Below are positions 3,943-46,661 of a DNA stretch of 64,000 nt, in pieces. Position 1 is the first letter of the stretch. Each line of letters starts with the position of its first letter. The DNA comes from Escherichia coli (GTDB taxonomy: Bacteria > Pseudomonadota > Gammaproteobacteria > Enterobacterales > Enterobacteriaceae). Under the pieces are notes generated by a model. That model did no database searches, was not told the DNA's origin, and was given only the letters and a program-made list of their open reading frames with translations. The DNA lies in assembly GCF_024298765.1 (NCBI RefSeq), contig NZ_CP101210.1, one strand, 5' to 3'. Made by a program: the position numbers and the translations under genes.

Positions 3943-4047
3943 TGCCGGATGCGGTGCACCTGTAGGCCTGATAAGACGCATCAAGCGTCGCATCAGGCAC
4001 TATGCTCAAATGCCGGATGCGGCGTGAACGCCTTATCCGGCCTACAC
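3943..4047. repeat. REP/BIME cluster
   Basis: GCCGGATGCGG...CCTTATCCGGCCTACA units plus GGCCTGATAAGACGC...GCGTCGCATCAGGC unit. Confidence 0.8.
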
Positions 4048-10204: not shown

Positions 10205-10305
10205 TAGGCATGATAAGACGCGGTAAGCGTCGCATCAGGCTTCAGCGCACCACCGCCGGATGCGGCGCGAGCGCCTTATCCGGCCTACGAATCGGCATCA
10301 GGCAT
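10205..10305. repeat. REP/BIME cluster
   Basis: GATAAGACGCG...CGTCGCATCAGGC and GCCGGATGCGGCGCGAGCGCCTTATCCGGCCTAC units between ytfR and ytfQ. Confidence 0.8.
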
Positions 10306-19232: not shown

Positions 19233-19335
19233 ATGCCGGATACGGCGTAAACGCCTTGCCCGGCCTACAAAATCGTCCAAATTCAATATATTGCGGGGAC
19301 TGCGTAGGCCTGTTCGGCATAGCGCATCAGGCAGT
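19233..19335. repeat. REP cluster
   Basis: GCCGGATACGGCGTAAACGCCTTGCCCGGCCTACA and GTAGGCCTG...CATCAGGC palindromic units. Confidence 0.75.
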
Positions 19336-19509
19336 TTTTCATTTTTCAGCTGTCTGAATTTTAACCCTCTGGCGGCTTTACAGTACCTTACGCTATACTA
19401 GCCACTGAAAATGCCGGTTCACTTTCTTCGAATCGGCTTTCAATGTGTATTTCACACAAATTAATCAACTTCCCCTTCCGAGGATCTGGCCTGAAAGGTC
19501 GGATAAGAT

Positions 19510-23968: not shown

Positions 23969-24157
23969 TTCTCCACCTCGTCTCTGTGAGCGGTGTTAAC
24001 TTATTGTTTTACTTATACCCTATCGTTAATGAATGCGCCAACTGTGATAGTGTCATCATTTTCAAAGCGTAAAATTGTGGCATTCTTCACTGTTCTATAA
24101 GTAAGACGTTTATTCTCCCTTTTCTTTCGTATTCCCGATGATAAAAGGATGTCCCTG

Positions 24158-29390: not shown

Positions 29391-29403
29391 TTTGTTCGAT
29401 CAA

Positions 29404-29434
29404 CGCACCTGGTTTACACAATCAGGTGCGTTTT
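29404..29434 (+). terminator. Rho-independent terminator after ytfE
   Basis: CGCACCTG-gtttacacaat-CAGGTGCG hairpin followed by TTTT. Confidence 0.65.
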
Positions 29435-29636
29435 CAAATGCTTTGAGTTATTCACCACTCCGGGACAATCTTTTGTATCTACTGAACTGGGAAAATTCAT
29501 TATTCAGCCAATAATAAGTTCCTTCAACGGTTACTAACTTATTTTTTTCATTAATATAATTACTTATTCATCGCTCCTGTATAAGCCAGAATAAAATCAC
29601 CCATTCCCTAGTTTTTACGTGTACATCCAGCTACCG

Positions 29637-30704
29637 CTACGCTTCCACCCACACCGACCCGCCATCATGGCGGTTCATCAGCGACCACAGCACATGGAAT
29701 TTCTCGCCTCTTTTATACTCCCCCTCCATTTTCCTGTCCGTCCATTCTGGCATCTGCTCTCCCTGCTCCAGTGTCACCGTCGCTTGTCTACCTTCTACAA
29801 AAATCGACCACTCCCCGCTATGAGGACAAGCTTCACCGCTAAAGGCCGCTATCCGCTGCCGGTCTGTAACATACTGCGCTTCGCGCTGTGGCCAGTTGTA
29901 CAACTCCTCCGGCATGCCCTGTGGGAAAAATCCCTCCGGCGGCACATTGATAAATCGGTTTGCCACCCGCCGTATACGTTTCCAATTGCATTTTGCCCAC
30001 GCCCCGCTTTCCCAGTAATATTCTTGTATCCCAGCCTCGTTGACATACTTCGTTCGTACCCGCCCCTGCCAAGCCTCGGGAATATGTTCACTCCGGTACA
30101 ACAGTTGGGCGCTGGCATCTGGGATATCCGGCAGATACAGGCCAGCCACCGTTACCGGGTCATCCTCACGCAGGTATACGCTACTATCCAGCTCATACAA
30201 CGGTAATTGCATCGGCAGGGCCAGCGGGCCGTGCAGACTTTCCTCATAATAATAAGTCAGTTCGCCGTCATACCAGTATCCGCCCGAGGTACGTCTGATT
30301 AAATTATTATAATGTGCACCTCGCCATTTCAGTCTGTCATACTGTTTTTGCGCGGCGAGTGACATCCAGTCCGACGGATAATCAATTAGTCCTTTCATAT
30401 CACTGCTAATATTGCCCCCGGATTGCAGTACCCGCAGGTCCCCCTGCTGTAGCTGAATAAAGTCATACTGTACCGACTTTAAAGTACTGCGGATATTGGG
30501 CAACACTCGCCCGCCCCAGACGACGTCAATCTGCTCGCACAGCGGACGACGGCGCACATCCAGCGGCATGGCCTTGCTCCACTCTGCCACCTGTCGCTCG
30601 CACAGCTCGACAAACTCCTGCCACCCCTCAAAACGACGCCGATAATATTCCGGCGACATTATTCTTTCCAGCAACCAGCACTCCTGTGGATGTAATATAG
30701 CCAC
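29637..30704 (-). CDS. Hypothetical Trp/Tyr-rich cytoplasmic protein (355 aa from GTG with AGGAG Shine-Dalgarno; ORF track gives 373 aa from ATG at 30758)
   Basis: Long ORF in the ytfE-cycA insertion; no signal peptide, no TM segment, no motif I recognise; 16 Trp by my count. Confidence 0.6.
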   Translation of the reverse strand: MAILHPQECWLLERIMSPEYYRRRFEGWQEFVELCERQVAEWSKAMPLDVRRRPLCEQIDVVWGGRVLPNIRSTLKSVQYDFIQLQQGDLRVLQSGGNISSDMKGLIDYPSDWMSLAAQKQYDRLKWRGAHYNNLIRRTSGGYWYDGELTYYYEESLHGPLALPMQLPLYELDSSVYLREDDPVTVAGLYLPDIPDASAQLLYRSEHIPEAWQGRVRTKYVNEAGIQEYYWESGAWAKCNWKRIRRVANRFINVPPEGFFPQGMPEELYNWPQREAQYVTDRQRIAAFSGEACPHSGEWSIFVEGRQATVTLEQGEQMPEWTDRKMEGEYKRGEKFHVLWSLMNRHDGGSVWVEA

Positions 30705-30958
30705 TTTATCTCCTGATTTATTAATTAATTGTCTATTGATACTTTTATTTCGGTACATAAATATTTGTTTGCAACTGAGACACAGCTATATACATATCCA
30801 CTTCATCTATCATCGGTACGCTGACCGTCAAAATAGACGCTGCGTTTATCGGCAGCGAAAGCGCCGAATGCCTGAAAACTGGCGGCATCAACATTAGGTT
30901 CACCGGATGGATTTTTCAGGACTTTGCCTGCCCAAAGGACAGAACGTCCATCGGTGAG

Positions 30959-31237
30959 TCAGGTATGCTGGCAATCCCCCTCATCATCGCAATCGAACTT
31001 ATCGGGATTAAAATCGGACAGTAACCGGGAATCTTGTTTATTGGCTAAATTGGCAATGCGCCAGAGGCGGGACAAATTAACGTCCGGCAGTTCGGAGAGG
31101 ATCTCATCTTTTTTCCCCTTCTGTTCGGCAACGTAAACAGTGCCTTTCTCCTGCTGGCGGTAATAAAAATCCGCGCCCCAGGAAGGTGAAATGGAGAGAG
31201 GTAATGCGGCGATTAATAACCAACTGCGCTTAACCAT
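30959..31237 (-). CDS. Hypothetical small secreted protein (signal peptide, acidic Cys-containing C-terminus)
   Basis: ORF 30959-31261; start taken at ATG giving MVKRSWLLIAALPLSISPSWGA signal peptide; C-terminus DCDDEGDCQHT. Confidence 0.5.
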   Translation of the reverse strand: MVKRSWLLIAALPLSISPSWGADFYYRQQEKGTVYVAEQKGKKDEILSELPDVNLSRLWRIANLANKQDSRLLSDFNPDKFDCDDEGDCQHT

Positions 31238-31321
31238 AATGAACTCTGCAATGAGTGGCAAAGATTCACGGTAAGCCCGCGCCTGGGGGGATGTCGATGA
31301 CGGTAAGTTTTTTTAGGAATG

Positions 31322-31350
31322 TATAAAGACAAAGGCACCCGCAGGTGCCT
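31322..31350 (-). terminator. Putative terminator downstream of cycA
   Basis: AAGGCACC-CGCA-GGTGCCTT hairpin followed on the minus strand by a T-rich tract. Confidence 0.5.
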
Positions 31351-31371
31351 TTCAGAGTGATAAACGCGGCA

Positions 31372-32775: not shown

Positions 32776-33083
32776 GTTTTTTTCTTCCTGTACCTGTCTG
32801 TGTTGTTCAGGCTCTGCGGCCTTTTGTACGTCTATGATACGACGAATCTGTATCGGGACTCATCGATATTAGGTAAGAATAAGCGGGATGAATACTAAGA
32901 TTTAAATATTATGTTAATTACATGTTGAATTTGAGGGTCATATCACTCTGGTAACGCGAAACAGCTCACAAAAATAACCGCAACAGAGCCATTTGCAACA
33001 TAAAATATCGACAGTAAGCAAATTCTAGTTTTTACGCTCTGTTGTCCATTCCCCTCAAATCTGAGGGGAACAGAATGCGCTGC

Positions 33084-33704
33084 TTAGAGGATTTCCAGCA
33101 GTTCGACTTCAAACACCAGGGTGCTGAACGGAGGGATGGACGCGCCTGCGCCACGCTCGCCATATGCCAGTTCCTGCGGGATAGTCAGTTCCCATTTAGA
33201 ACCTACCGGCATCAGAGTCAGTGCTTCAATCCAGCCAGGGATCACGCCATTAACCGGGAATTCAGCTGGCTCGCCGCGAGCAACGGAGCTGTCAAACACG
33301 GTGCCGTCGATCAGTTTTCCGGTGTAATGAACACGAACGCGGTCGGTACGTGCCGGAATTGCGCCTTCACCCTGGTTGATCACGCGGAATTGCAGGCCAG
33401 ATTCGGTGCTATTTACACCTTCTTTTTTGGCGTTTTCTTCCAGGTATTTCACACCTTCAGCAGCCATCGCCTGGAAACGCTGACGACGAACGGCATCGGC
33501 GCGTTCGTGGATTTCACGCAGCGCGCGGTGCACCACATCAACCGGAACAGCCGGATGTTTGCCTTCCAGCGCATCGGCAATGCCTGCAACCAGTGCTTCT
33601 GGCAGCAGCCCTTCCAGGCCAGATTCACTCAGTTGTTGCCCTACCTGCAAACCAATGCCGTAGCTTGCTTGCGCTTCGATGGTGTCAAAAGTTGGGGTGG
33701 TCAT
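33084..33704 (-). CDS. fklB: FKBP-type peptidyl-prolyl cis-trans isomerase
   Basis: Start at [18 protein letters not shown] (206 aa); FKBP domain at C-terminus. Confidence 0.92.
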
Positions 33705-33921
33705 CGTATTTCCTTTCTTAGGGTATAAAGTAGCGGGCAGCATATCAGCCACACTTCTTTGGGTAAAACTTTGTCGCGGGAATGATGACAAATCCCGGGG
33801 AAAAAGAAACAATAGCAATATCCCGTATGAATATAATAAAGGCGGGTTTACCACGGACATCATAGCGTTAGCTTATTCATAGGCTATGATTGAGGAACAA
33901 GACGCGGAGCAGGAGGAAACC

Positions 33922-34560
33922 ATGCCCGGGCGCTTTGAACTAAAACCAACCCTGGAGAAAGTCTGGCACGCGCCGGACAATTTTCGCTTCATGGACCCGC
34001 TGCCGCCGATGCATCGTCGGGGGATCATTATTGCCGCCATTGTATTGGTGGTCGGATTTCTGCTTCCATCTGATGATACGCCCAACGCGCCGGTGGTGAC
34101 GCGTGAAGCACAGTTAGATATTCAGTCGCAATCACAACCACCGACAGAAGAACAGCTGCGGGCGCAATTAGTTACGCCACAAAATGATCCTGATCAGGTG
34201 GCTCCGGTCGCTCCAGAACCAATACAGGAAGGCCAGCCAGAAGAACAGCCGCAAACCACCCAAACGCAACCATTCCAGTCAGATAGCGGAATTGATAATC
34301 AATGGCGCTCCTATCGTGTCGAACCTGGTAAAACGATGGCGCAACTGTTCCGCGACCACGGACTGCCCGCTACCGATGTCTATGCCATGGCGCAGGTAGA
34401 AGGCGCGGATAAGCCACTGAGTAATTTGCAAAACGGGCAGATGGTGAAAATCCGCCAGAACGCCAGCGGCGTGGTGACGGGCTTAACCATTGATACGGGG
34501 AATAATCAACAGGTCCTGTTTACCCGCCAGCCGGATGGCAGTTTTATTCGTGCGCGGTAG
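33922..34560 (+). CDS. ytfB: Cell-division-associated protein YtfB (OapA/LysM-like C-terminus)
   Basis: Start at [10 protein letters not shown] (212 aa); single TM segment and Pro/Gln-rich linker. Confidence 0.88.
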
Positions 34561-35191
34561 ATGAAGGGTCAACCAAAAGCCAGCTAAGGATTGTCTCTTT
34601 GATGACCTTACGTCTGGCTTCCAGTGCCTGGGGTGAAACCATACTGATGTGATAAACCAGGCCAAGCGTATGCTGGTTGATCAAATAATATCCCCCAAGC
34701 GCAGCAATATTAATATTCACCTGCAATGGGTCGATATCTGGCTTAAAAATATTGTGTTTCTTCCCTTCATCCAATAAGGATTCCATTAACTGCAAGTGCG
34801 CATGGTTAATTTCTAAGAGACGCTGTGATTTTGCATAATGCACACCTTTACTTTGATTTTCACTATGCACAATTTTTAAAAACCAGGGATTAGAAATATA
34901 ATAATCCCATGTAAAATCGATTATTTTCTCAATGGCTTTCTGTGGCGGAAGATCTGAGAAATCAAGGGCCTTTTCTTTTTGTCGAATATCGTTCCAGGTA
35001 TATTCCAGTACTTCGATAAATAAATTTTCTTTATTACCAAAGTGGTGATAAACCGTCTGTTTACTGCACCCCGCGGCCTTGACGATATTATCGACTCTGG
35101 CCCCTTCGTAACCATATTCGGCAAATTCATTAACCGCGCATAACAGCAGCTTTTCTTTCAGGCTCTGTACGTTGCTGGTATCAAGATACAT
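34544..35191 (-). CDS. TetR/AcrR-family transcriptional regulator
   Basis: HTH region [44 protein letters not shown]; start taken at [11 protein letters not shown]-rich; divergent from the downstream operon. Confidence 0.8.
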
Positions 35192-35313
35192 AACGCTTCC
35201 CCACGACCTCTTCGTGGTGACTATCATAACCTGATTTGATTTCAGCTTCAGAAAAAAGGGCAAAAACTTGTACTTTCATCAGGTTATCAAATGTCCTGTG
35301 ATCGCCATCGCAT

Positions 35314-35335
35314 ATCAACCAACTAGATGGTTGAT
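35314..35335. promoter_or_regulatory. Candidate TetR operator (inverted repeat ATCAACCA-actaga-TGGTTGAT)
   Basis: Perfect 8-bp arms in the divergent intergenic region between the TetR gene and the SDR gene. Confidence 0.35.
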
Positions 35336-35403
35336 CTTTTTATCCTCCAGTCGCAAGCTAATCATCACTAAGGAAACAAAATTCAAAAAAAGAGAGCTAT
35401 TGT

Positions 35404-36195
35404 ATGAAATCCACTCGTCCTGTTGCCGTGATTACCGGAGCCGCACGTGGTATTGGAAAGGGCTGTGCGCTGGAGCTTGCGCGTGGCGGATTTAATCTGC
35501 TGATTAATGATCGTCCGGATACCGATAGCGTAGAAAAATTACATGCCACACAACAAGAATGTCTGGCGGAAGGCGTGGAAGTGATTTGCTTCCCTGCTGA
35601 TGTTGGCGATCTCTCCCTGCATGAAGAGATGCTCGACGCAGCGCAAAACCAGTGGGGACGTCTGGACTGCCTGCTCAACAACGCAGGCATTTCAGTGAAA
35701 AAACGCGGTGATCTTCTCGACCTCGAACCAGACAGCTTCGACCAAAATATTGCCATTAACACCCGCGCACCGTTCTTCCTCGCTCAGGCATTCAGTAAGC
35801 GCTTACTGGCACAGCCGAAACCGGAAGCAGAACTGCCGCACCGCTCGATTATTTTCGTCAGTTCCATCAACGCCATCATGCTGGCGATGAATCGCGGCGA
35901 ATATACCATTGCCAAAACTGCCGTCTCTGCCGCTGCTCGTCTGTTTGCTGCTCGCCTTTGTAATGAACAAATTGGCGTTTATGAAGTGCGTCCTGGTCTC
36001 ATCAAAACCGATATGACTATTCCGGCAACGGCCTATTACGACGAACTGATTGCCAAAGGTCTGGTGCCGTGGGGACGTTGGGGTTATCCGGCTGATATTG
36101 CTTCCACTGTCCGCGCGATGGCGGAAGGTAAACTGATTTACACCTGTGGTCAGGCGGTCGCCATCGACGGCGGCTTAAGTATGCCGCGCTTCTGA
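35404..36195 (+). CDS. Short-chain dehydrogenase/reductase (SDR) family oxidoreductase
   Basis: 263 aa; TGAARGIG cofactor motif near the N-terminus. Confidence 0.85.
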   Translation: MKSTRPVAVITGAARGIGKGCALELARGGFNLLINDRPDTDSVEKLHATQQECLAEGVEVICFPADVGDLSLHEEMLDAAQNQWGRLDCLLNNAGISVKKRGDLLDLEPDSFDQNIAINTRAPFFLAQAFSKRLLAQPKPEAELPHRSIIFVSSINAIMLAMNRGEYTIAKTAVSAAARLFAARLCNEQIGVYEVRPGLIKTDMTIPATAYYDELIAKGLVPWGRWGYPADIASTVRAMAEGKLIYTCGQAVAIDGGLSMPRF

Positions 36196-36204
36196 GGCTG
36201 AATC

Positions 36205-37047
36205 ATGAGAGATCTGTTACAACGCCCGGATTTATTCAGTATCAATACCGCGACACTGGGCTATAAAACGCCGCTGCCCGCCATTATTGATGCCTGCGCC
36301 GCACGCGGTATTGGCGCCATTGCCCCCTGGCGCAGGGAGTTGCAGGGTGAAGATCTCCAGCAAATCGCCCGCCAGCTTGCTGCCAGTAACATAAACGTTT
36401 CCGGTTTGTGCCGTAGCACCTACTACACCGCACCGACGCTGGCGGAGCGCAAACTGGCGATTGACGATAACCGCCGGGCGCTGGACGACGCCGCTGTACT
36501 GAACGCCGCCTGTTATATGCAGGTGGTTGGCGGTCTGCCAATGGGAACAAAAGATCTGTATGAAGCGCGGGAACAAGTGAAACAAGGGATTCGCCAGTTA
36601 CTGCCACATTCGAAAGAGGTCGGCGTGCCGATTGCGCTGGAGCCGCTACACCCGATGACCGCAGCCGATCGTTCCTGTTTGTGCACGTTACGTCAGGCGC
36701 TGGACTGGTGTGATGAACTCGATCCCGATGGCGAATTTGGCCTCGGCGTGGCGGTAGATGTCTACCATGTCTGGTGGGACCCGGATCTCGCCAGTCAGAT
36801 CCTGCGTGCCGGAAAACGCATCCTCGCGTTTCATGTTTCCGACTGGTTAGTGCCGACCACCGATCTGGTCAATGACCGTGGAATGCCGGGAGATGGTGTC
36901 ATCAATATTCCGTCAATTCGTCGGCTGGTTGAAAACGCCGGATTTAATGGCGCTATTGAACTGGAAATATTCTCACCGTACTGGTGGCAGAAAGATATTA
37001 ACAGCACGCTGGATATTAGCGTCGATCGCATCGCACATTATTGTTAA
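36205..37047 (+). CDS. Sugar phosphate isomerase/epimerase (xylose-isomerase-like TIM barrel)
   Basis: 280 aa; family assigned from overall resemblance only; 9-nt gap to SDR gene. Confidence 0.7.
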   Translation: MRDLLQRPDLFSINTATLGYKTPLPAIIDACAARGIGAIAPWRRELQGEDLQQIARQLAASNINVSGLCRSTYYTAPTLAERKLAIDDNRRALDDAAVLNAACYMQVVGGLPMGTKDLYEAREQVKQGIRQLLPHSKEVGVPIALEPLHPMTAADRSCLCTLRQALDWCDELDPDGEFGLGVAVDVYHVWWDPDLASQILRAGKRILAFHVSDWLVPTTDLVNDRGMPGDGVINIPSIRRLVENAGFNGAIELEIFSPYWWQKDINSTLDISVDRIAHYC

Positions 37048-37056
37048 GGAATAATC

Positions 37057-37833
37057 ATGAGTGACCAACCCGTTCTGTTCAGCAGAGCGGCGGCTTCTTG
37101 CCGCCTGACATTGAACCGTGAAGATAAATGTCATGCTATTAATGAAGAAATGATCGAATCTCTCGACCATTATTTAAATGAAATTGAAAACGACACCACA
37201 TTACGATTAGTCGAATTAACGGCAACCGGCGATAAATTCTTTTGTGCGGGCGGCGATATTAAATCGTGGTCGGCCTATTCGCCATTAGATATGGGCAGAA
37301 AATGGATTAAACGCGGTAACGAGGTTTTTAATCGCCTGCGCAACTTACCCCAATTAACCGTTGCGAATCTCAACGGTCATACCATCGGTGGCGGTATTGA
37401 ACTTGCCTTGTGCTGCGATATTCGTATCGCTCGCCCCGGCGCGAAATTCTCTAACCCGGAAGTGATGCTCGGCATGGTGCCTGGCTGGATGGGCATTGAA
37501 CGCGTGCTTAATCAGGTTGGCCCGGTGGTCGGTCGCCAGATGCTGATGCTGGGTAAACGCCTGACGGCGCAGGAAGCTCAGGTGGCGAATTTAATTGATG
37601 AAGTGGTAGAAAAAGAACAGGTGGAAAGCTGGATGGCGAACCAGTTAGCGCAGCTGGAAAAATGTGGTCCGGTGGCACTGGCACATATTAAGCAACTGAT
37701 TCTGGCGCTGGAAAATAAACACGCCGATTACTCCCACCAGTTACTGGCTGGATTAATGTCCGCCACTCAGGATTGCCAACAGGCGACGCACGCATTTGCC
37801 GAAAAAGCCGGCGTGAGCTTCCACAATCAATAA
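37057..37833 (+). CDS. Enoyl-CoA hydratase/isomerase (crotonase) family protein
   Basis: 258 aa; crotonase-fold motifs (FCAGGDIK, GHTIGGGIELAL). Confidence 0.85.
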   Translation: MSDQPVLFSRAAASCRLTLNREDKCHAINEEMIESLDHYLNEIENDTTLRLVELTATGDKFFCAGGDIKSWSAYSPLDMGRKWIKRGNEVFNRLRNLPQLTVANLNGHTIGGGIELALCCDIRIARPGAKFSNPEVMLGMVPGWMGIERVLNQVGPVVGRQMLMLGKRLTAQEAQVANLIDEVVEKEQVESWMANQLAQLEKCGPVALAHIKQLILALENKHADYSHQLLAGLMSATQDCQQATHAFAEKAGVSFHNQ

Positions 37834-37842
37834 GGAAATTGT

Positions 37843-39384
37843 ATGCGTAAGTTATCAACCGCCGAGACACTGGCGGCGCAAATTCAGGACGGCGCAACCA
37901 TTGCCATTAGCGGCAACGGCGGCGGCATGGTGGAAGCTGACCATATTCTGGCCGCCATTGAAGCGCGCTTTCTGCAAACCGGACACCCGCGCGATCTGAC
38001 ATTAATCCACTCGCTGGGTATTGGCGATCGCGACAGCAAAGGCACTAACCGTTTTGCTCACGCCGAAATGCTCAAACGCATTATTGCCGGACATTTTACC
38101 TGGTCGCCCAAGATGCAGGAACTGGTGAAAAGCAATGCTATTGAAGCCTACTGTTTCCCTGGTGGCGTAATTCAGGCACTGCTGCGGGAGATCGGTGCCG
38201 GACGTCCGGGGCTTTTTACCCACGTTGGGCTGGGATCGTTTGTTGATCCACGCAATGGTGGCGGTAAGTCGAATGAATGCACGACCGACGACCTGGTAGA
38301 ACTGATTGAAATCGACGGTGAAACCAAACTCCGCTATCGCCCTTTCAAAGTGGACTACGCGATTTTGCGCGGCACCTATGCCGATCCGCGTGGCAACGTT
38401 AGCCTCGAAGAAGAAGCGATTGATATGGATAGCTATTCGATGGCGCTGGCAGCACACAACAGTGGCGGCAAAGTGTTTGTACAGGTGCGCGATGTACTGG
38501 AAGCTGGCGCCATTGAACCTCGCAAGGTCAAGCTACCGGGGATTCTGGTCGATGGTATCGTTGAACACCGCGAACAACCGCAAACCTATCTTGGCGGTTA
38601 CGACCTGACCATCAGCGGTCAGCATCGCCGTCTAAGTTCTAACGACGCTATTGAACTGGTTAGTCATCCGGTGCGTCGCCTGATTGCCCGTCGGGCAGCG
38701 CGGGAACTGGCGGCAGGTGCTTCAACCAACTTTGGCTTTGGTATTCCCGGCGGTATTCCTGGGGTTGCACTGCGCGAAGGCGTGCCTTATCAAAGTTTGT
38801 GGCTGAGTGTAGAACAGGGTGTACATAACGGCATGATGCTGGATGATGCTCTGTTCGGCTGCGCCCGTAACGCCGATGCCATTATTCCATCACTCGATCA
38901 ATTCGAATTCTACAGTGGCGGCGGTATCGATATCACCTTCCTCGGCATGGGAGAGATGGATCGGTACGGTAACGTCAACGTATCCCATCTCAATGGCAAT
39001 CTCATTGGCCCCGGCGGCTTCCTCGAAATTGCGCAAAACGCCCGTAAAGTGGTGTTCTGCGGTACGTTCGACGCTAAAGGCAGCAAGATTGATGTAACGC
39101 CTGATGGCCTGCATATCGCCCAGTCAGGTCAAATCCCCAAACTGGTTACCCAGGTGGAAAAAATTACTTTTAGCGCCGCATACGCACAGCAAAGCAGTCA
39201 GGAAGTGCTGTATATCACCGAACGTGCGGTATTCCAGTTAACGGCAGAAGGCGTTGAATTAATTGAGATCGCCCCTGGCGTAGAGATTGACCGCGACATT
39301 CTGCCGTATATGGCCTTCCGTCCGATTATCAGGCACCCACGCCTGATGGAAAGTAGCCTGTTTACGCCAATGGAGGATGCATGA
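37843..39384 (+). CDS. Family I CoA-transferase (fused alpha/beta; propionate/acetate CoA-transferase-like)
   Basis: 513 aa; assigned by resemblance to YdiF/Pct-type CoA transferases. Confidence 0.75.
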   Translation: MRKLSTAETLAAQIQDGATIAISGNGGGMVEADHILAAIEARFLQTGHPRDLTLIHSLGIGDRDSKGTNRFAHAEMLKRIIAGHFTWSPKMQELVKSNAIEAYCFPGGVIQALLREIGAGRPGLFTHVGLGSFVDPRNGGGKSNECTTDDLVELIEIDGETKLRYRPFKVDYAILRGTYADPRGNVSLEEEAIDMDSYSMALAAHNSGGKVFVQVRDVLEAGAIEPRKVKLPGILVDGIVEHREQPQTYLGGYDLTISGQHRRLSSNDAIELVSHPVRRLIARRAARELAAGASTNFGFGIPGGIPGVALREGVPYQSLWLSVEQGVHNGMMLDDALFGCARNADAIIPSLDQFEFYSGGGIDITFLGMGEMDRYGNVNVSHLNGNLIGPGGFLEIAQNARKVVFCGTFDAKGSKIDVTPDGLHIAQSGQIPKLVTQVEKITFSAAYAQQSSQEVLYITERAVFQLTAEGVELIEIAPGVEIDRDILPYMAFRPIIRHPRLMESSLFTPMEDA

Positions 39385-41453
39385 GTCAGCTTGATGAGGC
39401 CATCCTTGATGCACTGACACACGTTACTTTCCCAAAGGGTTTTGCACAGGCAGAACCCGCATGGGTTGTCACGGTAGACGGTGTTGATTACCCACTCTGG
39501 AAAACAGATGCCCTGGTAGTCGGCAGTGGTGCAGCCGGGCTACGTGCAGCTGTGGAACTTAAACGCCGCCAGCAAAATGTGTTAATCGCCACCGCCGGGT
39601 TATATATGGGGACATCGGCATGTTCTGGCTCTGATAAACAAACACTGTTTACCGCCGCTACCGCGGGCAACGGCGACAACTTCGCCAAACTGGCAGAGGC
39701 ACTGGCGAGCGGTGGGGCGATGGATCACGACACCGCTTATGTCGAAGCGGTAGGTTCTCTGCACACTCTTGGCGGGTTGCAATATCTTGGTCTGGAATTA
39801 CCGGAAGATCGCTATGGCGCGATTCTTCGTTATCAAACCGACCATGACGAAGCCGGGCGTGCAACCTCGTGTGGGCCGCGTACCTCAAGGTTAATGGTGA
39901 AAGTGCTGCTGGAAGAAGTACAGCGTCTTGCTATCCCAATGTTGACCAGTGCAACAGTGATTAAACTGCTGCATCAGCGTGACGAAAACGGTGAAGACCG
40001 TGTGGCGGGGGCAATCCTCGCGACCGGTCATCGCGCCCATAACCCATGGGGGCTGGCAATTGTGACTGCGCCCAATGTGGTACTGGCAACAGGAGGGCCT
40101 GGCGAGCTTTATCGCGACAGTGTGTATCCACACAAATGTTTCGGCTCGCTGGGGCTGGCGCTGGAGGAAGGTCTGACGCTAACCAATCTGACTGAAAGCC
40201 AGTTTGGTATCGGCACACCGCGCAGCACGTTTCCGTGGAATTTGTCCGGCACCTATGTGCAGGTGATCCCGTATATCTATTCCGTGGATGCCGAGGGCAA
40301 CGAGTATAACTTCCTCGCGGATTACTATCGCACCACCCAAGAGCTGGCTTCAAACATTTTCCGTAAAGGCTATCAGTGGCCGTTCCACGCCACGCGGGTA
40401 ATGGATTTTGGCTCCAGCTTGTTAGATATGGCGGTGGCGCAAGAGCAGCAACATGGTCGCCAGGTGTTTATGGATTTCAATCGCAATCCTGAAGTGGTGC
40501 CGGGTGACCTGCCCTTCTCATTAGATCGACTGGACGACGACGTTCGCGCGTATCTGGAAAATAACGACGCTCTGGCACCATCGCCCATCGAACGACTGCA
40601 ACGAATGAATCCGCTGTCTATCTCGCTGTATAAGATGCACGGTTACGATCTCACCACGCAGCCATTGCAGTTTGCCATGAATAATCAGCATATGAATGGC
40701 GGCATTGAAGTGGATATCTGGGGACAAACATCTCTGCCCGGTTGTTTTGCTGTGGGGGAAGTTGCTGGCACACACGGCGTCACCCGACCTGGCGGTGCGG
40801 CATTGAATGCCGGGCAGGTTTTTGCTGTTCGTCTGGCACGTTTTATTGGTTGCACGCAAAAGCGGAATATTGATGGAGATATAGCACAGCTGGCAGCTCC
40901 GGCACTGGCTTCTATAAGAGAGATCATTACTCAGGCGCACGATAACGGAACCGGGATGCCGTTGTCGGTTGTGAGGGAAAAAATTCAGGCACGAATGTCT
41001 GACCATGCGGGATTTATTTGTCATGCCGATAAAGTCCGACGCGCCACTCGTGATGCCCTGCTATTGAGTGAATTTGTGCAACGGCATGGATTGGCAATCA
41101 AACATGTGGGTGAAGTTGCCGAGCTGTTTATGTGGCGGCATATGGCGCTGACTTCTGCCGCGGTATTAACACAATTAACGCATTATATTGATGCTGGTGG
41201 TGGTAGCCGTGGGGCGCGTATGGTTATAGATCCACAAGGCAAATGCCTACCACAAACTCGTCGCGGCGCAAAAGAAGAATGGCGTTTTCGCTCTGAACTC
41301 GCTGAAGACAAAAATCACAAATTAACAATTCAATATTCGCAAGGTTCTTTTATTACCGAAGTAAAGTCTTTACGTATTCAACCGTGTATTAACGGTATTT
41401 ACTTTGAAAAAAACTGGCCAGACTTTTTAAAGGGAGACATTTACACACAATAA
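39381..41453 (+). CDS. FAD-dependent oxidoreductase (fumarate reductase/succinate dehydrogenase flavoprotein-like)
   Basis: 690 aa; dinucleotide-binding motif VVGSGAAGLRAAVEL; ATGA overlap with the upstream CoA-transferase. Confidence 0.75.
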   Translation: MSQLDEAILDALTHVTFPKGFAQAEPAWVVTVDGVDYPLWKTDALVVGSGAAGLRAAVELKRRQQNVLIATAGLYMGTSACSGSDKQTLFTAATAGNGDNFAKLAEALASGGAMDHDTAYVEAVGSLHTLGGLQYLGLELPEDRYGAILRYQTDHDEAGRATSCGPRTSRLMVKVLLEEVQRLAIPMLTSATVIKLLHQRDENGEDRVAGAILATGHRAHNPWGLAIVTAPNVVLATGGPGELYRDSVYPHKCFGSLGLALEEGLTLTNLTESQFGIGTPRSTFPWNLSGTYVQVIPYIYSVDAEGNEYNFLADYYRTTQELASNIFRKGYQWPFHATRVMDFGSSLLDMAVAQEQQHGRQVFMDFNRNPEVVPGDLPFSLDRLDDDVRAYLENNDALAPSPIERLQRMNPLSISLYKMHGYDLTTQPLQFAMNNQHMNGGIEVDIWGQTSLPGCFAVGEVAGTHGVTRPGGAALNAGQVFAVRLARFIGCTQKRNIDGDIAQLAAPALASIREIITQAHDNGTGMPLSVVREKIQARMSDHAGFICHADKVRRATRDALLLSEFVQRHGLAIKHVGEVAELFMWRHMALTSAAVLTQLTHYIDAGGGSRGARMVIDPQGKCLPQTRRGAKEEWRFRSELAEDKNHKLTIQYSQGSFITEVKSLRIQPCINGIYFEKNWPDFLKGDIYTQ

Positions 41454-41545
41454 TTTCCAATATTTCCTCTGTACCTGATTTTTATTGCCTATTACATGGA
41501 AATACCAACAACCAGGGTTTATTAATATAATTAAAAGGTTTAAAA

Positions 41546-42823
41546 ATGAATAAAATAAAGAATTATCGATGGTATATGATTGCCCTCGTATGCTTTATCA
41601 CTGTAATCAATTATCTGGACAGAACGGCGTTAGGTATTGCGGCTCCAACGATTATGGAGACAACCGGAATAACCAAAGAACAATATTCATGGATTGTCAG
41701 TGCATTCCAGTTGGCCTATACATTAGGGCAACCGGTAATGGGCTTCTTTATTGATACCGTGGGTCTGAAGTTAAGTTTTGCGATATGTGCCGCAATTTGG
41801 GGCCTGGCGACAATGGGCCATGCACTAACCGGAACGTGGTCTGGTCTGGCATTTATGCGCGCCCTGATGGGTTTCAGCGAAGCGTCGGCAATTCCGGCGG
41901 GTGTAAAAACCGCATCAACATGGTTCCCGGCAAAAGAGCGTGGCGTGGCGACAGGTGTTTTCAATATGGGCACCTCACTCGGCGCGATGCTTGCTCCACC
42001 GTTGATTGCCTGGTGCATTATGTTTCATAGCTGGCAATTTGCGTTTATTGTTTCAGGTAGCCTTGCTTTGCTCGCGGCTTTATTTTGGTTCTTTTGTTAT
42101 AAAGATCCGAAAGATGCCAAACGCCTTTCTGATGAAGAGCGCCACTATATTGAATCAGGACAAGAACAGCATCTTAAAACAGATAAGAAAGAAAAAACAT
42201 CAATCAAGCATATCCTCAGCCAACGTAATTTCTGGGGGATTGGCATCGCGCGTTTTCTCGCAGACCCGGCATGGGGAACCATTAACTTCTGGGTGCCGAT
42301 TTTCTTCGTCGAAACGCTGCATTTTAGCCTGAAAGAAATTGCCATGTTCGTCTGGCTGCCTTTCCTGCTGGGCGATCTCGGCTGTTTAGCCAGTGGTTTT
42401 GTCGCGAAGTTCTTCCACGATCGCGGCGTGAGTTTAATTAACTCACGAAGAATTACCTTCACTATTGCAGCCGTCATTATGATGACGATTGGCCTGGTGA
42501 GTATTGTCGAAAATCCCTACATTGCCGTATTACTGATTAGTATTGGCGCGTTCTCGCATCAATGCCTTTCTACTGTAGCAGCAACTCTGGGTGGCGATCT
42601 GTTCAAAAAAGACGAAGTAGCTACCGCAGTGGGTATGGCAGGAGCCTGTGCGTGGAGCGGTCAGTTGATTTTCAACCTGTTCATCGGGGCATTCGTTCAC
42701 ATTATCGGCTTCGCGCCGTTCTTTATTGCCCTGGCTTTCTTTGACATTATTGGCGCCATTGCGCTGTGGATGCTTATCAAAGTTAAAGACGAAGAACTAC
42801 AAGTACAGTTAGCGACAAGCTAA
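41546..42823 (+). CDS. MFS transporter (anion:cation symporter family, hexuronate/glucarate-transporter-like)
   Basis: 425 aa 12-TM ORF; N-terminus NYLDRTALGIAAP typical of ExuT/GudP-like carriers. Confidence 0.82.
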   Translation: MNKIKNYRWYMIALVCFITVINYLDRTALGIAAPTIMETTGITKEQYSWIVSAFQLAYTLGQPVMGFFIDTVGLKLSFAICAAIWGLATMGHALTGTWSGLAFMRALMGFSEASAIPAGVKTASTWFPAKERGVATGVFNMGTSLGAMLAPPLIAWCIMFHSWQFAFIVSGSLALLAALFWFFCYKDPKDAKRLSDEERHYIESGQEQHLKTDKKEKTSIKHILSQRNFWGIGIARFLADPAWGTINFWVPIFFVETLHFSLKEIAMFVWLPFLLGDLGCLASGFVAKFFHDRGVSLINSRRITFTIAAVIMMTIGLVSIVENPYIAVLLISIGAFSHQCLSTVAATLGGDLFKKDEVATAVGMAGACAWSGQLIFNLFIGAFVHIIGFAPFFIALAFFDIIGAIALWMLIKVKDEELQVQLATS

Positions 42824-42832
42824 TTATTTTAC

Positions 42833-42875
42833 ATAGAAACGCTATAATTTAGCTTTGTAGCGTTTCTATTTTTCT
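42833..42875 (+). terminator. Rho-independent terminator after the MFS gene
   Basis: ATAGAAACGCT...AGCGTTTCTAT 11-bp stem followed by TTTTCT. Confidence 0.6.
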
Positions 42876-42960
42876 CATAAATTAAACGTCTCTTCCAAAA
42901 CGTTCAGTATCTACTGGCATTGCTTCGCAAATTTATGATTTAGATATCAAAATAACTATT

Positions 42961-44228
42961 CTAAATTGCCCCCCTGAATGCCTCTGCCATTAACTCTTGC
43001 TCACGACCAGGTAATCGAAGACGCTCGGCAATGATTCGCCACTGACTGACAATCCCTCTAAAATTAGCAATAATGTCATCTGCTTCTGTCAAACCAAGTC
43101 GAAAATACTCCGCAACTTCTCGAGCTAATTCCAAATCAAGTGCATTATCATTTCTGTAATATTGAGTTTTAGACCGTCAGACCTGGCAACAGGATTCAAA
43201 TCATATGCCTCAGAAAGCCGCCAACCTTTTCCCGGTATCAAGATATATCCATGATTACGTAAATGGTCATCGGTATTAGAAACAAGAATATTAAAAACAA
43301 TCCTGGACCAGAGTTCCTTAAGGTCAGTATTAGTCTGCGCTCCATGTCTGATAAGAACATCTGCTAATTCCAGATAACTCACACCTGTAGAGGCATCTTC
43401 ACCATCCTGATGCCTGGTTAGTGTCATAGCCGAAGCAAAATGCAGACGCCTTCCCGCATTAGTGCGGTCAAAACGACGAACCATAAAACAATGGTAATTG
43501 CTGGCAAATTTATGCGCCTGAGCAGGTGCAACATTCAGTCCACAGCCAACAGCAAGTGCATTAACGACCATTTCCCATCCACCAACATCATACTCATCTT
43601 TTACACTGGGAAATTTAGCGATGTAGAGATGCCCAGCTTCATCAACAACACTGGCTTTCGGACGTGCCCCCCCTAATGATCCCCCCGGAGCGATTAGCAT
43701 TCTTAACCATTTTTGCCCCATTAGCTCTTTATTATCAGGATCTTCTTCAATTGCCCGGCTAGCCCTTTCCAGACTCGCTATTTCGGTAAATGGTGGGGCT
43801 GCAACATCAATGCGATTATCAAGAAACTCTCCAGCGTCTTCACGTTTGTATCGAAGAGCCCCAACCCGATAAAGATCATGAACACCTAGTAGATAATCAG
43901 ACTCATAAAGGTGGGAGTCTTTATCACATAACCCGTCTCGAATATCCCTCTCAAAACGACGCTTCATTAGCATACGCCCCCAACGATCCGGGCAGGAATC
44001 ACTAAATGCACCAAATTTATCCTTTGGAGGAATTGGGTACTGTGCTCCCTCATACAACATTATTTCAGGATCTAACTGAATGAAATTAAGTGAAGGATCT
44101 GCAAGCGCCTTTTTATCGTACTCAAACTCAAATATCTCACGCGTCCGAGTGCGGCGACTGTGTAAATAACCAATCCGCTCCGGACCATCCAGGCCTTCCC
44201 AATCCGCATACACTCCGATTAATGCCAT
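42961..44228 (-). pseudogene. HipA-family serine/threonine kinase toxin, frameshifted (367-aa ORF plus ~56 codons continuing in another frame)
   Basis: HipA motifs (APGGSLGGARPK, DDHLRNHG, AYDLNP); ORF stops at 43125 but frame continues to stop at 42961 after a 1-nt shift in an A run near 43151-43153. Confidence 0.7.
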
Positions 44229-44230
44229 AA

Positions 44231-44722
44231 TTAATTTCCTTTTAACGGTTTTTTTATCGGTTTTAATAGTGCTGCAAGAGAGGTTGATGTTTCTCCTGTA
44301 ATAGATGGCGTCGAGCCTTCTGCCAGTGCTGTTAAATCCGTGGTGAGATGACCTTCTTTCTCGTGCCTCATCTGCAATGAGGCTGTCTGAGAACCTTCTT
44401 CATTCTTACTTGATGCACGAGAAAGCCCTCTTTTTTTAATCAAACGGGAATCCTGGAGCTGACGCCCTAAGTCGTCTTCAGCTGCAAGCTTATTTAAATC
44501 CGTTTCCAGGCCCAAAACCTGCATCACAGACAAATATGCCCCTATCGTGACCCCTGCACTTCCTGACTCCAGAGAGCGCAATGTTATTGGCGACATCCCA
44601 GCACGTTCAGCAACTTGCTTTGCGGTAAGCCTGCGTCGTAAACGAGCAAGTTTCAGCCGCTCACCAAATTCACTAAGCATCTGATTCGTATAAGGGAGTA
44701 ACGGTGCTGTTTTTTTACCCAT
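44231..44722 (-). CDS. HipB-like XRE-family HTH antitoxin with long Ser/Thr-rich C-terminal extension
   Basis: 163 aa; [26 protein letters not shown]; stop 2 nt before hipA-like start. Confidence 0.75.
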
Positions 44723-44742
44723 AGTGATAATATTTTATCTTT

Positions 44743-44763
44743 TTATGGCTATGATAGCCATAA
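44743..44763. promoter_or_regulatory. Perfect 21-bp palindrome TTATGGCTAT-G-ATAGCCATAA upstream of hipB-like gene (candidate autoregulatory operator)
   Basis: 10-bp arms, 21-41 nt upstream of the hipB-like start codon. Confidence 0.4.
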
Positions 44764-45076
44764 TATTAGCATTTATTGGATTGAACGCACCTGCAAAGCG
44801 TTCAAGATTACGAAAGTGATGGTATTTTATCTTTTTATATATAAAAACAATAAAATAACAGCACATTCATATATAACATATTGTTTTTATTATCATACAA
44901 GTGAGACGATCGCTGTATTGATGCTTTTGTCGTGTTTTACGCGTAAAAAACATGACACGAACTACCAGCGGCGAGGCTGGGGGCCAGGTATGGGTACTGC
45001 GAACTTTTTATAAAAGGAATAGCAAGAGATTTATGGAGGGAACGTCTGTTTCTGCGGTTTTTATCACTTAAAAGCA

Positions 45077-45103
45077 AAACGCCGACCACTGGTCGGCGTT
45101 TTT
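45077..45103 (-). terminator. Rho-independent terminator downstream of rplI (bidirectional in appearance)
   Basis: GCCGACC-ACT-GGTCGGC hairpin flanked by A-run and T-run. Confidence 0.65.
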
Positions 45104-45123
45104 ACGTCTCGTTGAATAACGAA

Positions 45124-45585
<462 letters not shown>

Positions 45586-45614
45586 TCAAAGTCGTATTAA
45601 TGGACCGTGACCGA

Positions 45615-46161
<547 letters not shown>

Positions 46162-46167
46162 CAGAAA

Positions 46168-46581
<414 letters not shown>

Positions 46582-46661
46582 TTATTCAGCCTCCTGTCTG
46601 GGTCAGCCGAATCCCGGGGAGGCAAGGAACGTGTTAAAGGTCGGCTGAAAAATGACGCGTT

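Follow-up and report, generated by a model that had tools for sequence, protein, structure and literature searches.

The ytfB-rplI interval of Escherichia coli, a strain-variable locus that probably joins an ancestral operon, lost by K-12, to an independent hipBA-like cassette

INTRODUCTION

Several described systems resemble parts of the ytfB-rplI interval of Escherichia coli. In K-12 this interval holds ytfA' and yjfZ; ytfA varies in presence among E. coli strains, and every strain of E. albertii and E. fergusonii examined has it (PMC6790063), and a published quantitative PCR (qPCR) assay takes yjfZ for a signature gene that all E. coli/Shigella share (PMC11057252). Here we describe the corresponding interval in a 64,000-nucleotide stretch of E. 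coli DNA (RefSeq assembly GCF_024298765.1, contig NZ_CP101210.1; hereafter the window), in which a TetR-type regulator, an operon of five enzyme genes with a transporter gene of the major facilitator superfamily (MFS), and a hipBA-like pair lie between ytfB and rplI. The two loci occupy the same site and share the same flanks, and ytfA' corresponds to the 3' part of the window TetR gene. The K-12 locus lacks the TetR 5' end, the promoter, the five enzyme genes, the MFS gene, and hipBA, and has instead yjfZ and a relic of the gene for a short-chain dehydrogenase/reductase (SDR).

Other known systems bear on the gene content. Hexuronate transporters of the tripartite ATP-independent periplasmic (TRAP) type (e.g., Salmonella STM3169-3171 and 4N91, 4MHF, 4X8R, and 4N8Y) form the cluster most similar to the binding protein encoded by one E. 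coli form of the locus (form C, below). The known hexuronate systems supply the UxaC/UxuAB or Udh pathways, whereas the operon described here has coenzyme A (CoA)-dependent enzymes; moreover, the window carries an MFS gene and not the TRAP genes, and the likeness is one of overall sequence similarity. NadB, SdhA, and FrdA share with the operon flavoprotein an FAD_binding_2 domain (E = 2e-27), the His of a "QHMNGG" motif, and the Arg of "HGxxR." Unlike them, the operon flavoprotein belongs to an uncharacterised family, is 690 amino acids (aa) long with extra C-terminal sequence, and is encoded without iron-sulfur or membrane-anchor partner genes. Finally, in hipBA of K-12 and hipBST of E. coli O127, a helix-turn-helix (HTH) gene lies directly upstream of a HipA_C kinase gene, as it does here (Gerdes et al. 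2021, PMC8262856). The window cassette has the hipBA gene order and catalytic motifs conserved as in hipBA/hipBST, but its kinase is very distant from K-12 HipA and weakly similar to HipT, the N-terminal HipA domain is not significantly detected, the candidate antitoxin is 163 aa long compared to about 88 aa for HipB, and the kinase gene is frameshifted.

From the comparisons below, we consider it probable that the ytfB-rplI interval is a multi-haplotype chromosomal locus and that the window haplotype consists of an ancestral operon, which K-12 has lost, and an independent hipBA cassette. The locus is in other respects an ordinary strain-variable E. coli locus, and nothing in it is mechanistically surprising.

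RESULTS AND DISCUSSION

Comparison with K-12 and with other species

When the window was compared with K-12 ER1709 by blastn, homology ended at 34946 and restarted at 45071, leaving a 10,124-bp gap (34947-45070) within flanks that were 98 to 99% identical. In place of this segment, K-12 has 1,082 bp holding a 102-nt SDR relic, the yjfZ upstream region, and yjfZ. The original prediction, made from the window sequence alone, had named only yjfZ and ytfA (about 2 kb) at this site in K-12, and ER1709 indeed holds just a TetR pseudogene and yjfZ between ytfB and rplI. It had further proposed that a block of about 10.5 kb (34544-45110) is absent from K-12; this holds for 34947-45070 but not for the first 403 bp (34544-34946), which are present as ytfA'. 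That fragment is the 3' 403 bp of the window TetR gene (98% identity), and the ER1709 pseudogene is annotated as "missing N-terminus." Directly beside ytfA' lies the SDR relic (L005:3607-3708), which is homologous to window positions 35493-35594. Since the relic is only 79 to 85% identical to every intact allele, contains two in-frame stops, and has mismatches spread evenly over the codon positions (7/5/7), it is a decayed remnant. Because K-12 thus retains two remnants of the operon, it is best read as a deletion derivative.

The same gene order was found outside E. coli when one genome from each species was scanned with the flavoprotein as the query. In E. whittamii, the order is fklB, ytfB, TetR, SDR, triosephosphate isomerase (TIM) barrel, enoyl-CoA hydratase, CoA-transferase, flavoprotein, MFS, and rplI, collinear with window positions 33063-42826 at 91% nucleotide identity, with the MFS 99% identical. 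E. albertii has the same gene order up to a contig end inside the flavoprotein gene, and the contig of Escherichia sp. MOD1-EC7003 (cryptic clade), which spans CoA-transferase to rplI only, has it as well. The order is again the same in Entomohabitans teleogrylli, where the operon proteins are 77 to 89% identical to those of the window, a level comparable to that of its flanking fklB (87%) and rplI (95%). We judge that the AT-rich TetR gene, being conserved throughout the genus, is not foreign. One genome labelled E. coli (L012) has the TRAP version at the locus; it was rejected as an ordinary E. coli because its flanking genes are just 91 to 95% identical to those of the window, and it is probably a cryptic-clade species representative.

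Among 5426 complete E. coli genomes (the set used for all genome counts below, with at least 80% coverage for the enzyme genes), the five enzyme genes were present in 3114 (57%), nearly always on the chromosome, and the hipBA block was present in 1040 (19%), on chromosomes only. These distributions, together with distinct breakpoints and histories, indicated two units where the original prediction had seen a single accessory block. Unit 1 (34544-42869) would be an ancestral Escherichia operon that K-12-type strains lost through deletion, with ytfA' and the decayed SDR relic left over. Unit 2 (42870-45070) would be a horizontally acquired type II toxin-antitoxin cassette inserted between two terminators. 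The contrary view, that the lineage gained one block of about 10.5 kb and that the K-12-like state with ytfA and yjfZ is ancestral, finds some encouragement in the absence of the segment from K-12, in the AT-richness of TetR, MFS, and hipBA, and in the 43% of complete genomes that do not have the five enzyme genes. It is nevertheless very improbable: synteny of TetR, the enzymes, and MFS extends to Entomohabitans and other species of Escherichia; K-12 has, as ytfA', a truncated TetR copy with the SDR relic beside it, which already contradicts this view; and hipBA has its own breakpoints and distribution (1040 genomes versus 3114 for the enzyme genes). The remnants in K-12 and the outgroup synteny led us to reject a single insertion event.

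We considered also that the whole region might be a genomic island or integrative element with a recent history of mobility, the genes for which were lost or are located outside the interval. Insertion sequences (IS) do occur at the locus in other strains (IS609, IS2, and ISVsa5), and an ISApl1 lies about 5 kb away in strain 20Ec-P-124. However, the window does not have this ISApl1; no integrase, transposase, or relaxase gene was found among the open reading frames (ORFs) and RefSeq annotation of 34544-45110; a repeat search detected no direct or inverted repeats flanking the block, only short chance-level ones; and an Rfam scan at the gathering threshold yielded no tRNA gene in the window. 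Moreover, matches are nearly all chromosomal (3162 of 3163 places for the operon and 1050 of 1050 for hipBA), hipBA stands between MFS and rplI in all five strains examined (20Ec-P-124, ATCC 25922, Ecol_745, Z135-3, and M-17), and the enzyme genes have an E. coli-like GC content. A recent mobile origin is therefore highly unlikely, and the view that this is an old variable locus without mobility genes, as first proposed, was borne out.

Loss of an ancestral operon from K-12, the preferred reading, has evidence to contend with as well. The SDR relic is 15 to 20% diverged while the adjoining ytfA' is 98% identical, a difference that a simple single deletion does not explain; either the deletion haplotype is very old and its ytfA' was homogenised by recombination or the SDR relic had an unusual history. 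In addition, E. fergusonii, Salmonella, and Citrobacter were not among the 80 loci kept, and Escherichia could also have gained the operon early, with Entomohabitans as donor or recipient in a transfer. If the preferred reading is correct, K-12 misleads as a reference at this site: the apparent accessory island would be the ancestral state, and "ytfA" would be the stump of the operon regulator.

Haplotypes in E. coli

Four forms of the locus were distinguished, and the remaining genomes hold rarer states. Form A, that of the window, combines the operon, MFS, and hipBA (about 1040 genomes, with carriers that include ATCC 25922, APEC O1, ST131 isolates, and M-17). Form B has the operon, MFS, and yjfZ (about 600 genomes; e.g., isolate AF57), form C has the operon and a TRAP transporter with neither yjfZ nor hipBA (about 1440 genomes; e.g., strain E50), and form D is the K-12-type deletion with yjfZ (about 1900 genomes, many of which, such as O157:H7, also have IS609). 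By block, yjfZ was present in 2514 genomes (46%) and TRAP in 1444 (27%); at least 80% of an 11.9-kb query, corresponding to nearly the full window form or yjfZ form, was found in 1646. Forms B and C have the TetR gene, a palindrome upstream of it (described below), and the five enzyme genes as in the window, with segment identities of 92% to 99%. They differ from the window in that yjfZ fills the slot in place of hipBA in form B and three TRAP genes replace MFS in form C.

The part from fklB to the TIM-barrel gene is 97 to 99% identical between E. coli haplotypes. The CoA-transferase and flavoprotein genes (37843-41221), however, are only 92 to 96% identical, compared to differences of 1 to 2% in the flanking core genes. 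To judge by these alignments, the divergence indicates deep allelic lineages or introgression, and thus old allelic lineages appear to recombine at the locus. In form C, the last approximately 78 residues of the flavoprotein are 57% identical to those of the window (the rest, 95 to 98%), which puts a recombination breakpoint within the flavoprotein gene, near window position 41221 (TRAP region, L004:9423-12585), and indicates that the TRAP genes came in together with a diverged homologue's 3' end.

Because yjfZ is just one of several occupants of the slot, it is missing from about half of the complete genomes, and a qPCR assay on yjfZ would miss strains of the hipBA or TRAP haplotype. Among individual strains, IS609 (tnpA and tnpB) was found beside yjfZ in O157:H7 and others; strain CT30 has IS2 within hipA, and strain E06 has ISVsa5 within the operon.

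The hipBA-like cassette

Collinearity between the window and form B extends to about 42849/42869 and resumes at 45071. The variable slot between these points is bounded on the left by a hairpin terminator 3' of the MFS gene (42833-42869, plus strand), an equivalent of which also follows MFS in form B and E. whittamii, and on the right by the rplI terminator hairpin (45076-45102, minus strand); core homology resumes at about 45070. In the window, the slot holds the hipBA-like cassette of about 2.2 kb (42870-45070, breakpoints set against form B and E. whittamii), whereas it holds 1,055 bp with yjfZ in form B (L006:2631-3685) and 44 bp only in E. whittamii. This varied content between two terminators across strains and species suggests that the slot is a small hotspot. 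A 139-nt hipA remnant, 90% identical, lies beside rplI in Escherichia sp. MOD1-EC7003, an intact copy is present in E. albertii, and relatives that are 72 to 76% identical are carried on Azotobacter and Pantoea plasmids beside HTH genes. A repeat search found no terminal repeats bounding the cassette.

The cassette consists of an XRE-type HTH gene encoding a putative antitoxin or repressor (44231-44722, minus strand; 163 aa; Pfam HTH_31, E = 7e-11) and, downstream in the same operon, a gene for a HipA_C-family Ser/Thr kinase (42961-44228, minus strand; 422 codons when intact; "frameshifted" in RefSeq). The HTH gene ends 2 nt before the hipA start codon (44226-44228). Its product has the HTH at residues 18 to 75, followed by a tail of about 90 aa, and scored 30 bits against the HipB-type model TIGR03070 (cutoff, 71.65). 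The intact M-17 kinase matched HipA_C over residues 184 to 397 (Pfam, E = 1.5e-46), and the window translation contains the conserved kinase motifs (a Gly-rich loop, the catalytic D-H-x-[KR]-N, and a Mg-binding Asp) as GGSLGGARPK, NTDDHLRNHG, and AYDLNP, which align with those of HipT; the match to the HipA N-terminal domain (Couple_hipA, PF13657) was weak (E = 0.25). By phmmer, the kinase matched HipT of E. coli O127 with an E value of 2e-8 and K-12 HipA with one of about 0.2. According to Table 1 of the Hip-kinase phylogeny (PMC8262856), no clade of this kinase kind has been experimentally tested, and the supplements of that paper make no mention of the window kinase. The HTH protein would be the antitoxin and autorepressor, and the HipA_C kinase would be the toxin. 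In the promoter region, which is AT rich (44723-44871; repeat families D1, I1, and I2), two 24-nt direct repeats (44723-44746 and 44815-44838) and an inverted partner (44844-44871) are candidate operator sites.

An intact reading frame for the kinase toxin was not found in the window. Relative to M-17, in which hipA is intact (422 aa), an A4 run is cut to A3 (T3 on the plus strand, 43151-43153) by a 1-nt deletion, so that only 367 of 422 codons are read before the frame stops at 43125-43127, and the 55 conserved residues of the C terminus fall in a different frame. In alignments with M-17, hipA of ATCC 25922 carries an additional G in a G7 run among the codons for the Gly-rich loop, and hipA of Ecol_745 and Z135-3 has a 1-nt deletion at a third site that is not a homopolymer, giving three different frameshifts in three lineages. 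All five strains examined retain an intact HTH gene. As judged from the reading frames, the kinase gene is a pseudogene inactivated by the 1-nt deletion in the window strain, which leaves only the HTH gene intact. The original prediction of a HipB/HipA-like pair was thus correct as to the presence of the pair but took no account of the frameshifted hipA or of a 163-aa HTH protein that is not a canonical 88-aa HipB.

Could the pair nonetheless be a working toxin-antitoxin, persistence, or phage defence module, with an active truncated kinase or with a frameshift in the A run that is bypassed or phase variable? The 367-aa ORF retains the Gly-rich loop as well as the catalytic and YD motifs; at least 1000 contigs carry the exact truncated product, and at least 1000 the intact one; homopolymer runs hold two of the three frameshifts; and the HTH gene is always intact. 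Against this, the last 55 residues, located inside the HipA_C match or just beyond it, are out of frame, truncated K-12 HipA loses toxicity, and no PADLOC defence model matches the kinase. Since the third frameshift is not in a homopolymer run, programmed or phase-variable frameshifting was judged unlikely, and plain decay fits. A working module in the window is therefore improbable, and the pattern is better described as recurrent independent inactivation of the toxin gene with retention of its HTH partner.

The TetR regulator and its candidate operator

The regulator gene (34544-35191, minus strand; 215 aa; WP_001317585.1) encodes a protein whose N terminus matches TetR-family models (E of about 1e-12) and which RefSeq names a TetR/AcrR regulator. 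It is divergent from the operon across an intergenic region of 212 bp. An inverted repeat in this divergent promoter region is a 22-bp palindrome (35314-35335), ATCAACCAAC(T/C)AGATGGTTGAT, whose arms stay the same from E. coli to Entomohabitans; variation within it is confined to the central T/C, and the surrounding intergenic DNA has diverged. The palindrome has the footprint expected of a TetR operator and is a candidate for that role. TetR probably represses by binding it and would be released when the substrate or a CoA-ester intermediate is present.

Operon enzymes and candidate substrate

The first operon gene, on the plus strand as are all that follow, encodes the SDR (35404-36195; 263 aa; NCBIfam NF009386, 420 bits versus a cutoff of 250). 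It is followed by genes for a xylose-isomerase-like TIM barrel (36205-37047; 280 aa; Pfam PF01261, E = 1e-37), a crotonase-family enoyl-CoA hydratase/isomerase (37057-37833; 258 aa; NCBIfam enoyl-CoA hydratase models, E of about 1e-44), a fused family I acyl-CoA:acetate/3-ketoacid CoA-transferase (37843-39384; 513 aa; NCBIfam FadX and PcaI/PcaJ halves and the RefSeq name), and an FAD_binding_2 flavoprotein (39381-41453; 690 aa; Pfam PF00890, E = 2e-27). The spacing among these five is 9 nt or a 4-nt overlap, the latter being where the flavoprotein gene start overlaps the end of the CoA-transferase gene. After a 92-nt gap comes the gene for an MFS transporter of the anion:cation symporter (D-galactonate-type) family (41546-42823; 425 aa; TIGR00893, 315 bits).

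The flavoprotein is the signature enzyme of the operon. It is a distant relative of NadB/SdhA/FrdA and has only remote PDB relatives (E of about 1e-9). The His of its "...QHMNGG" motif and the Arg of "HGxxR" are conserved, the position of the proton-donor Arg could not be aligned, and the full catalytic His/Arg set of the SdhA/FrdA/NadB class is not displayed. In the scan, 324 related stretches were found. The family is widespread, with members in Proteobacteria, Planctomycetota, Verrucomicrobiota, and Lentisphaerota. Relatives adjoin SDR, TIM-barrel, and Gfo/Idh/MocA genes or stand among GMC oxidoreductases, sugar ABC transporters, LacI regulators, and PfkB kinases, and some adjoin CoA-transferase and hydratase genes; these neighbourhoods place the family in carbohydrate-like metabolism. 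The closest solved structures to the TIM barrel are 3QC0 and 3JU2 (SMc04130), both uncharacterised (E of about 2e-85), and literature searches on SMc04130/3JU2/3QC0 and on PDB code 7VPF found nothing useful.

The operon enzymes suggest CoA-thioester chemistry, and the CoA-transferase, crotonase-family hydratase, SDR, and flavoprotein (not an acyl-CoA dehydrogenase) resemble one turn of beta-oxidation that lacks a thiolase. With respect to the substrate, the binding protein of the form C TRAP transporter is closest to 4OVR, 4X8R, 4N8Y, 4N15, 4N91, and 4MHF (E from 6e-72 to about 1e-58), of which 4N8Y, 4X8R, 4N91, and 4MHF bind D-glucuronate and/or D-galacturonate (PMC11668362, PMC7660916). Two unrelated organic-acid transporters thus occur with the same enzymes, which argues for a carboxylate substrate; judged by the homologies, this is most likely a sugar acid that is hexuronate-like. 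In the pathway that we envisage, the operon would express a transporter for an organic acid, most likely such a sugar acid; the CoA-transferase would activate it as a CoA thioester; the flavoprotein, as a dehydrogenase or ene-reductase, would process the thioester together with the hydratase and SDR in beta-oxidation-like steps; and the TIM barrel would act as an isomerase or dehydratase on a sugar-like intermediate. It is possible, though somewhat short of an even chance, that the operon encodes a CoA-dependent route not yet described, acting on a hexuronate-like sugar acid or on some other organic acid from the host or the diet, with the uncharacterised flavoprotein as the key enzyme.

A number of observations weigh against such a route. 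Sugar-acid CoA thioesters are unusual, a thiolase or lyase gene is not present in the operon, and all enzyme matches but that of the SDR fall below the NCBIfam equivalog cutoffs. In the flavoprotein, the His that follows the "QF" motif of NadB/SdhA is Gly; in the absence of this catalytic His, its chemistry may differ from that of the fumarate-reductase-type enzymes. The transporters beside homologues in other genera are of the shikimate, aromatic-acid, or fucose type, and the substrate class would thus not be uniform across the family. Furthermore, literature searches on yjfZ/ytfA and on the combination of gene products in the operon found no description of, or experiment on, the locus or operon, so the proposed pathway rests on family-level annotation.

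Some of the same evidence would fit an operon for a hydroaromatic or alicyclic acid (quinate, shikimate, or cyclohexanecarboxylate like) or for a short 3-oxo or 3-hydroxy acid, e.g., by a 3-oxopropionate/acrylyl-CoA-type reductive route. The CoA-transferase, hydratase, 3-ketoacyl-type SDR, and ene-reductase-like flavoprotein would then be a complete beta-oxidation-like or reverse set, and the ShiA-like (Raoultella) and PcaK-like (Brenneria) transporters in homologous clusters would be in keeping with it. The superfamily of the operon TIM barrel includes dehydroshikimate and inosose dehydratases and hydroxypyruvate isomerase, and the operon protein has weak matches to TIGR03234 and IolO. Nevertheless, both E. 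coli transporters, MFS and TRAP, point to sugar acids, and many flavoprotein homologues are in carbohydrate clusters; a substrate outside the sugar acids is accordingly rather unlikely.

Whichever acid is used, the five-enzyme operon is unstudied and yet present in 57% of complete genomes, including the main extraintestinal pathogenic lineages examined. If the CoA-dependent route for a sugar acid or similar organic acid is real, the operon would have escaped study because K-12 deleted it, although more than half of E. coli, including ST131, ATCC 25922, and APEC O1, carry it, and the allelic divergence (up to 8%) and the exchange of MFS and TRAP would reflect long-term niche-dependent selection at the locus. 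As a separate observation, the slot between MFS and rplI in Entomohabitans (L015:13657-15169) holds genes for a MaoC-like (R)-specific enoyl-CoA hydratase and an EamA/DMT transporter, and this hydratase may belong to the pathway of the operon.

Composition and other features of the window

In all, nine genes lie between ytfB (33922-34560, plus strand) and rplI (45124-45573, minus strand), as determined from the ORF list, the RefSeq annotation, and profile searches. The gene list first read from the letters, consisting of TetR, five enzymes plus MFS, and a hipBA-like pair, matched the annotation and profile results. The TetR, MFS, and hipBA genes, which had looked AT rich by eye, are indeed so relative to the core flanks: the GC contents are 40.4% (TetR), 46.9% (MFS), 44.8% (hipA), 45.9% (HTH gene), and 42.6% (whole hipBA block) compared to 54.6% for ytfB, 56.0% for fklB, and a window mean of 50.9%. 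The five enzyme genes, at 49.7 to 55.2%, are ordinary for E. coli. The hipBA block therefore deviates from the host, with a GC content at third codon positions of 0.37 to 0.38 versus about 0.55 in the flanks, and the enzyme genes do not. Promoter and terminator scans gave no more matches than did shuffled sequence, except for the two boundary terminators, and no Rfam RNA family was found inside the block. Elsewhere in the window, Rfam detected an rpsF leader and five small RNA matches in four families (ES239, two naRNA4 copies, STnc450, and ES036), at 46561-46645, 24035-24157, 3965-4042, 10207-10285, and 19269-19448.

E. coli 20Ec-P-124, isolated from a pig in Japan, matches window positions 33800-45700 with 100% identity. 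Over its full length the window is 99.98% identical to that strain, apart from a 1,063-bp ISApl1 (IS30 family) found only in 20Ec-P-124 and inserted at about window positions 29549-29555, some 5 kb from the block. About 2 kb of extra DNA lies at 29400-31370 between ytfE and cycA. It contains an ORF of 355 to 373 aa (29637-30758, minus strand; RefSeq "hypothetical protein" WP_001317586.1), which had no NCBIfam or Pfam match, and a pseudogene fragment at about 30809-31237; in ATCC 25922, ytfE and cycA are adjacent.

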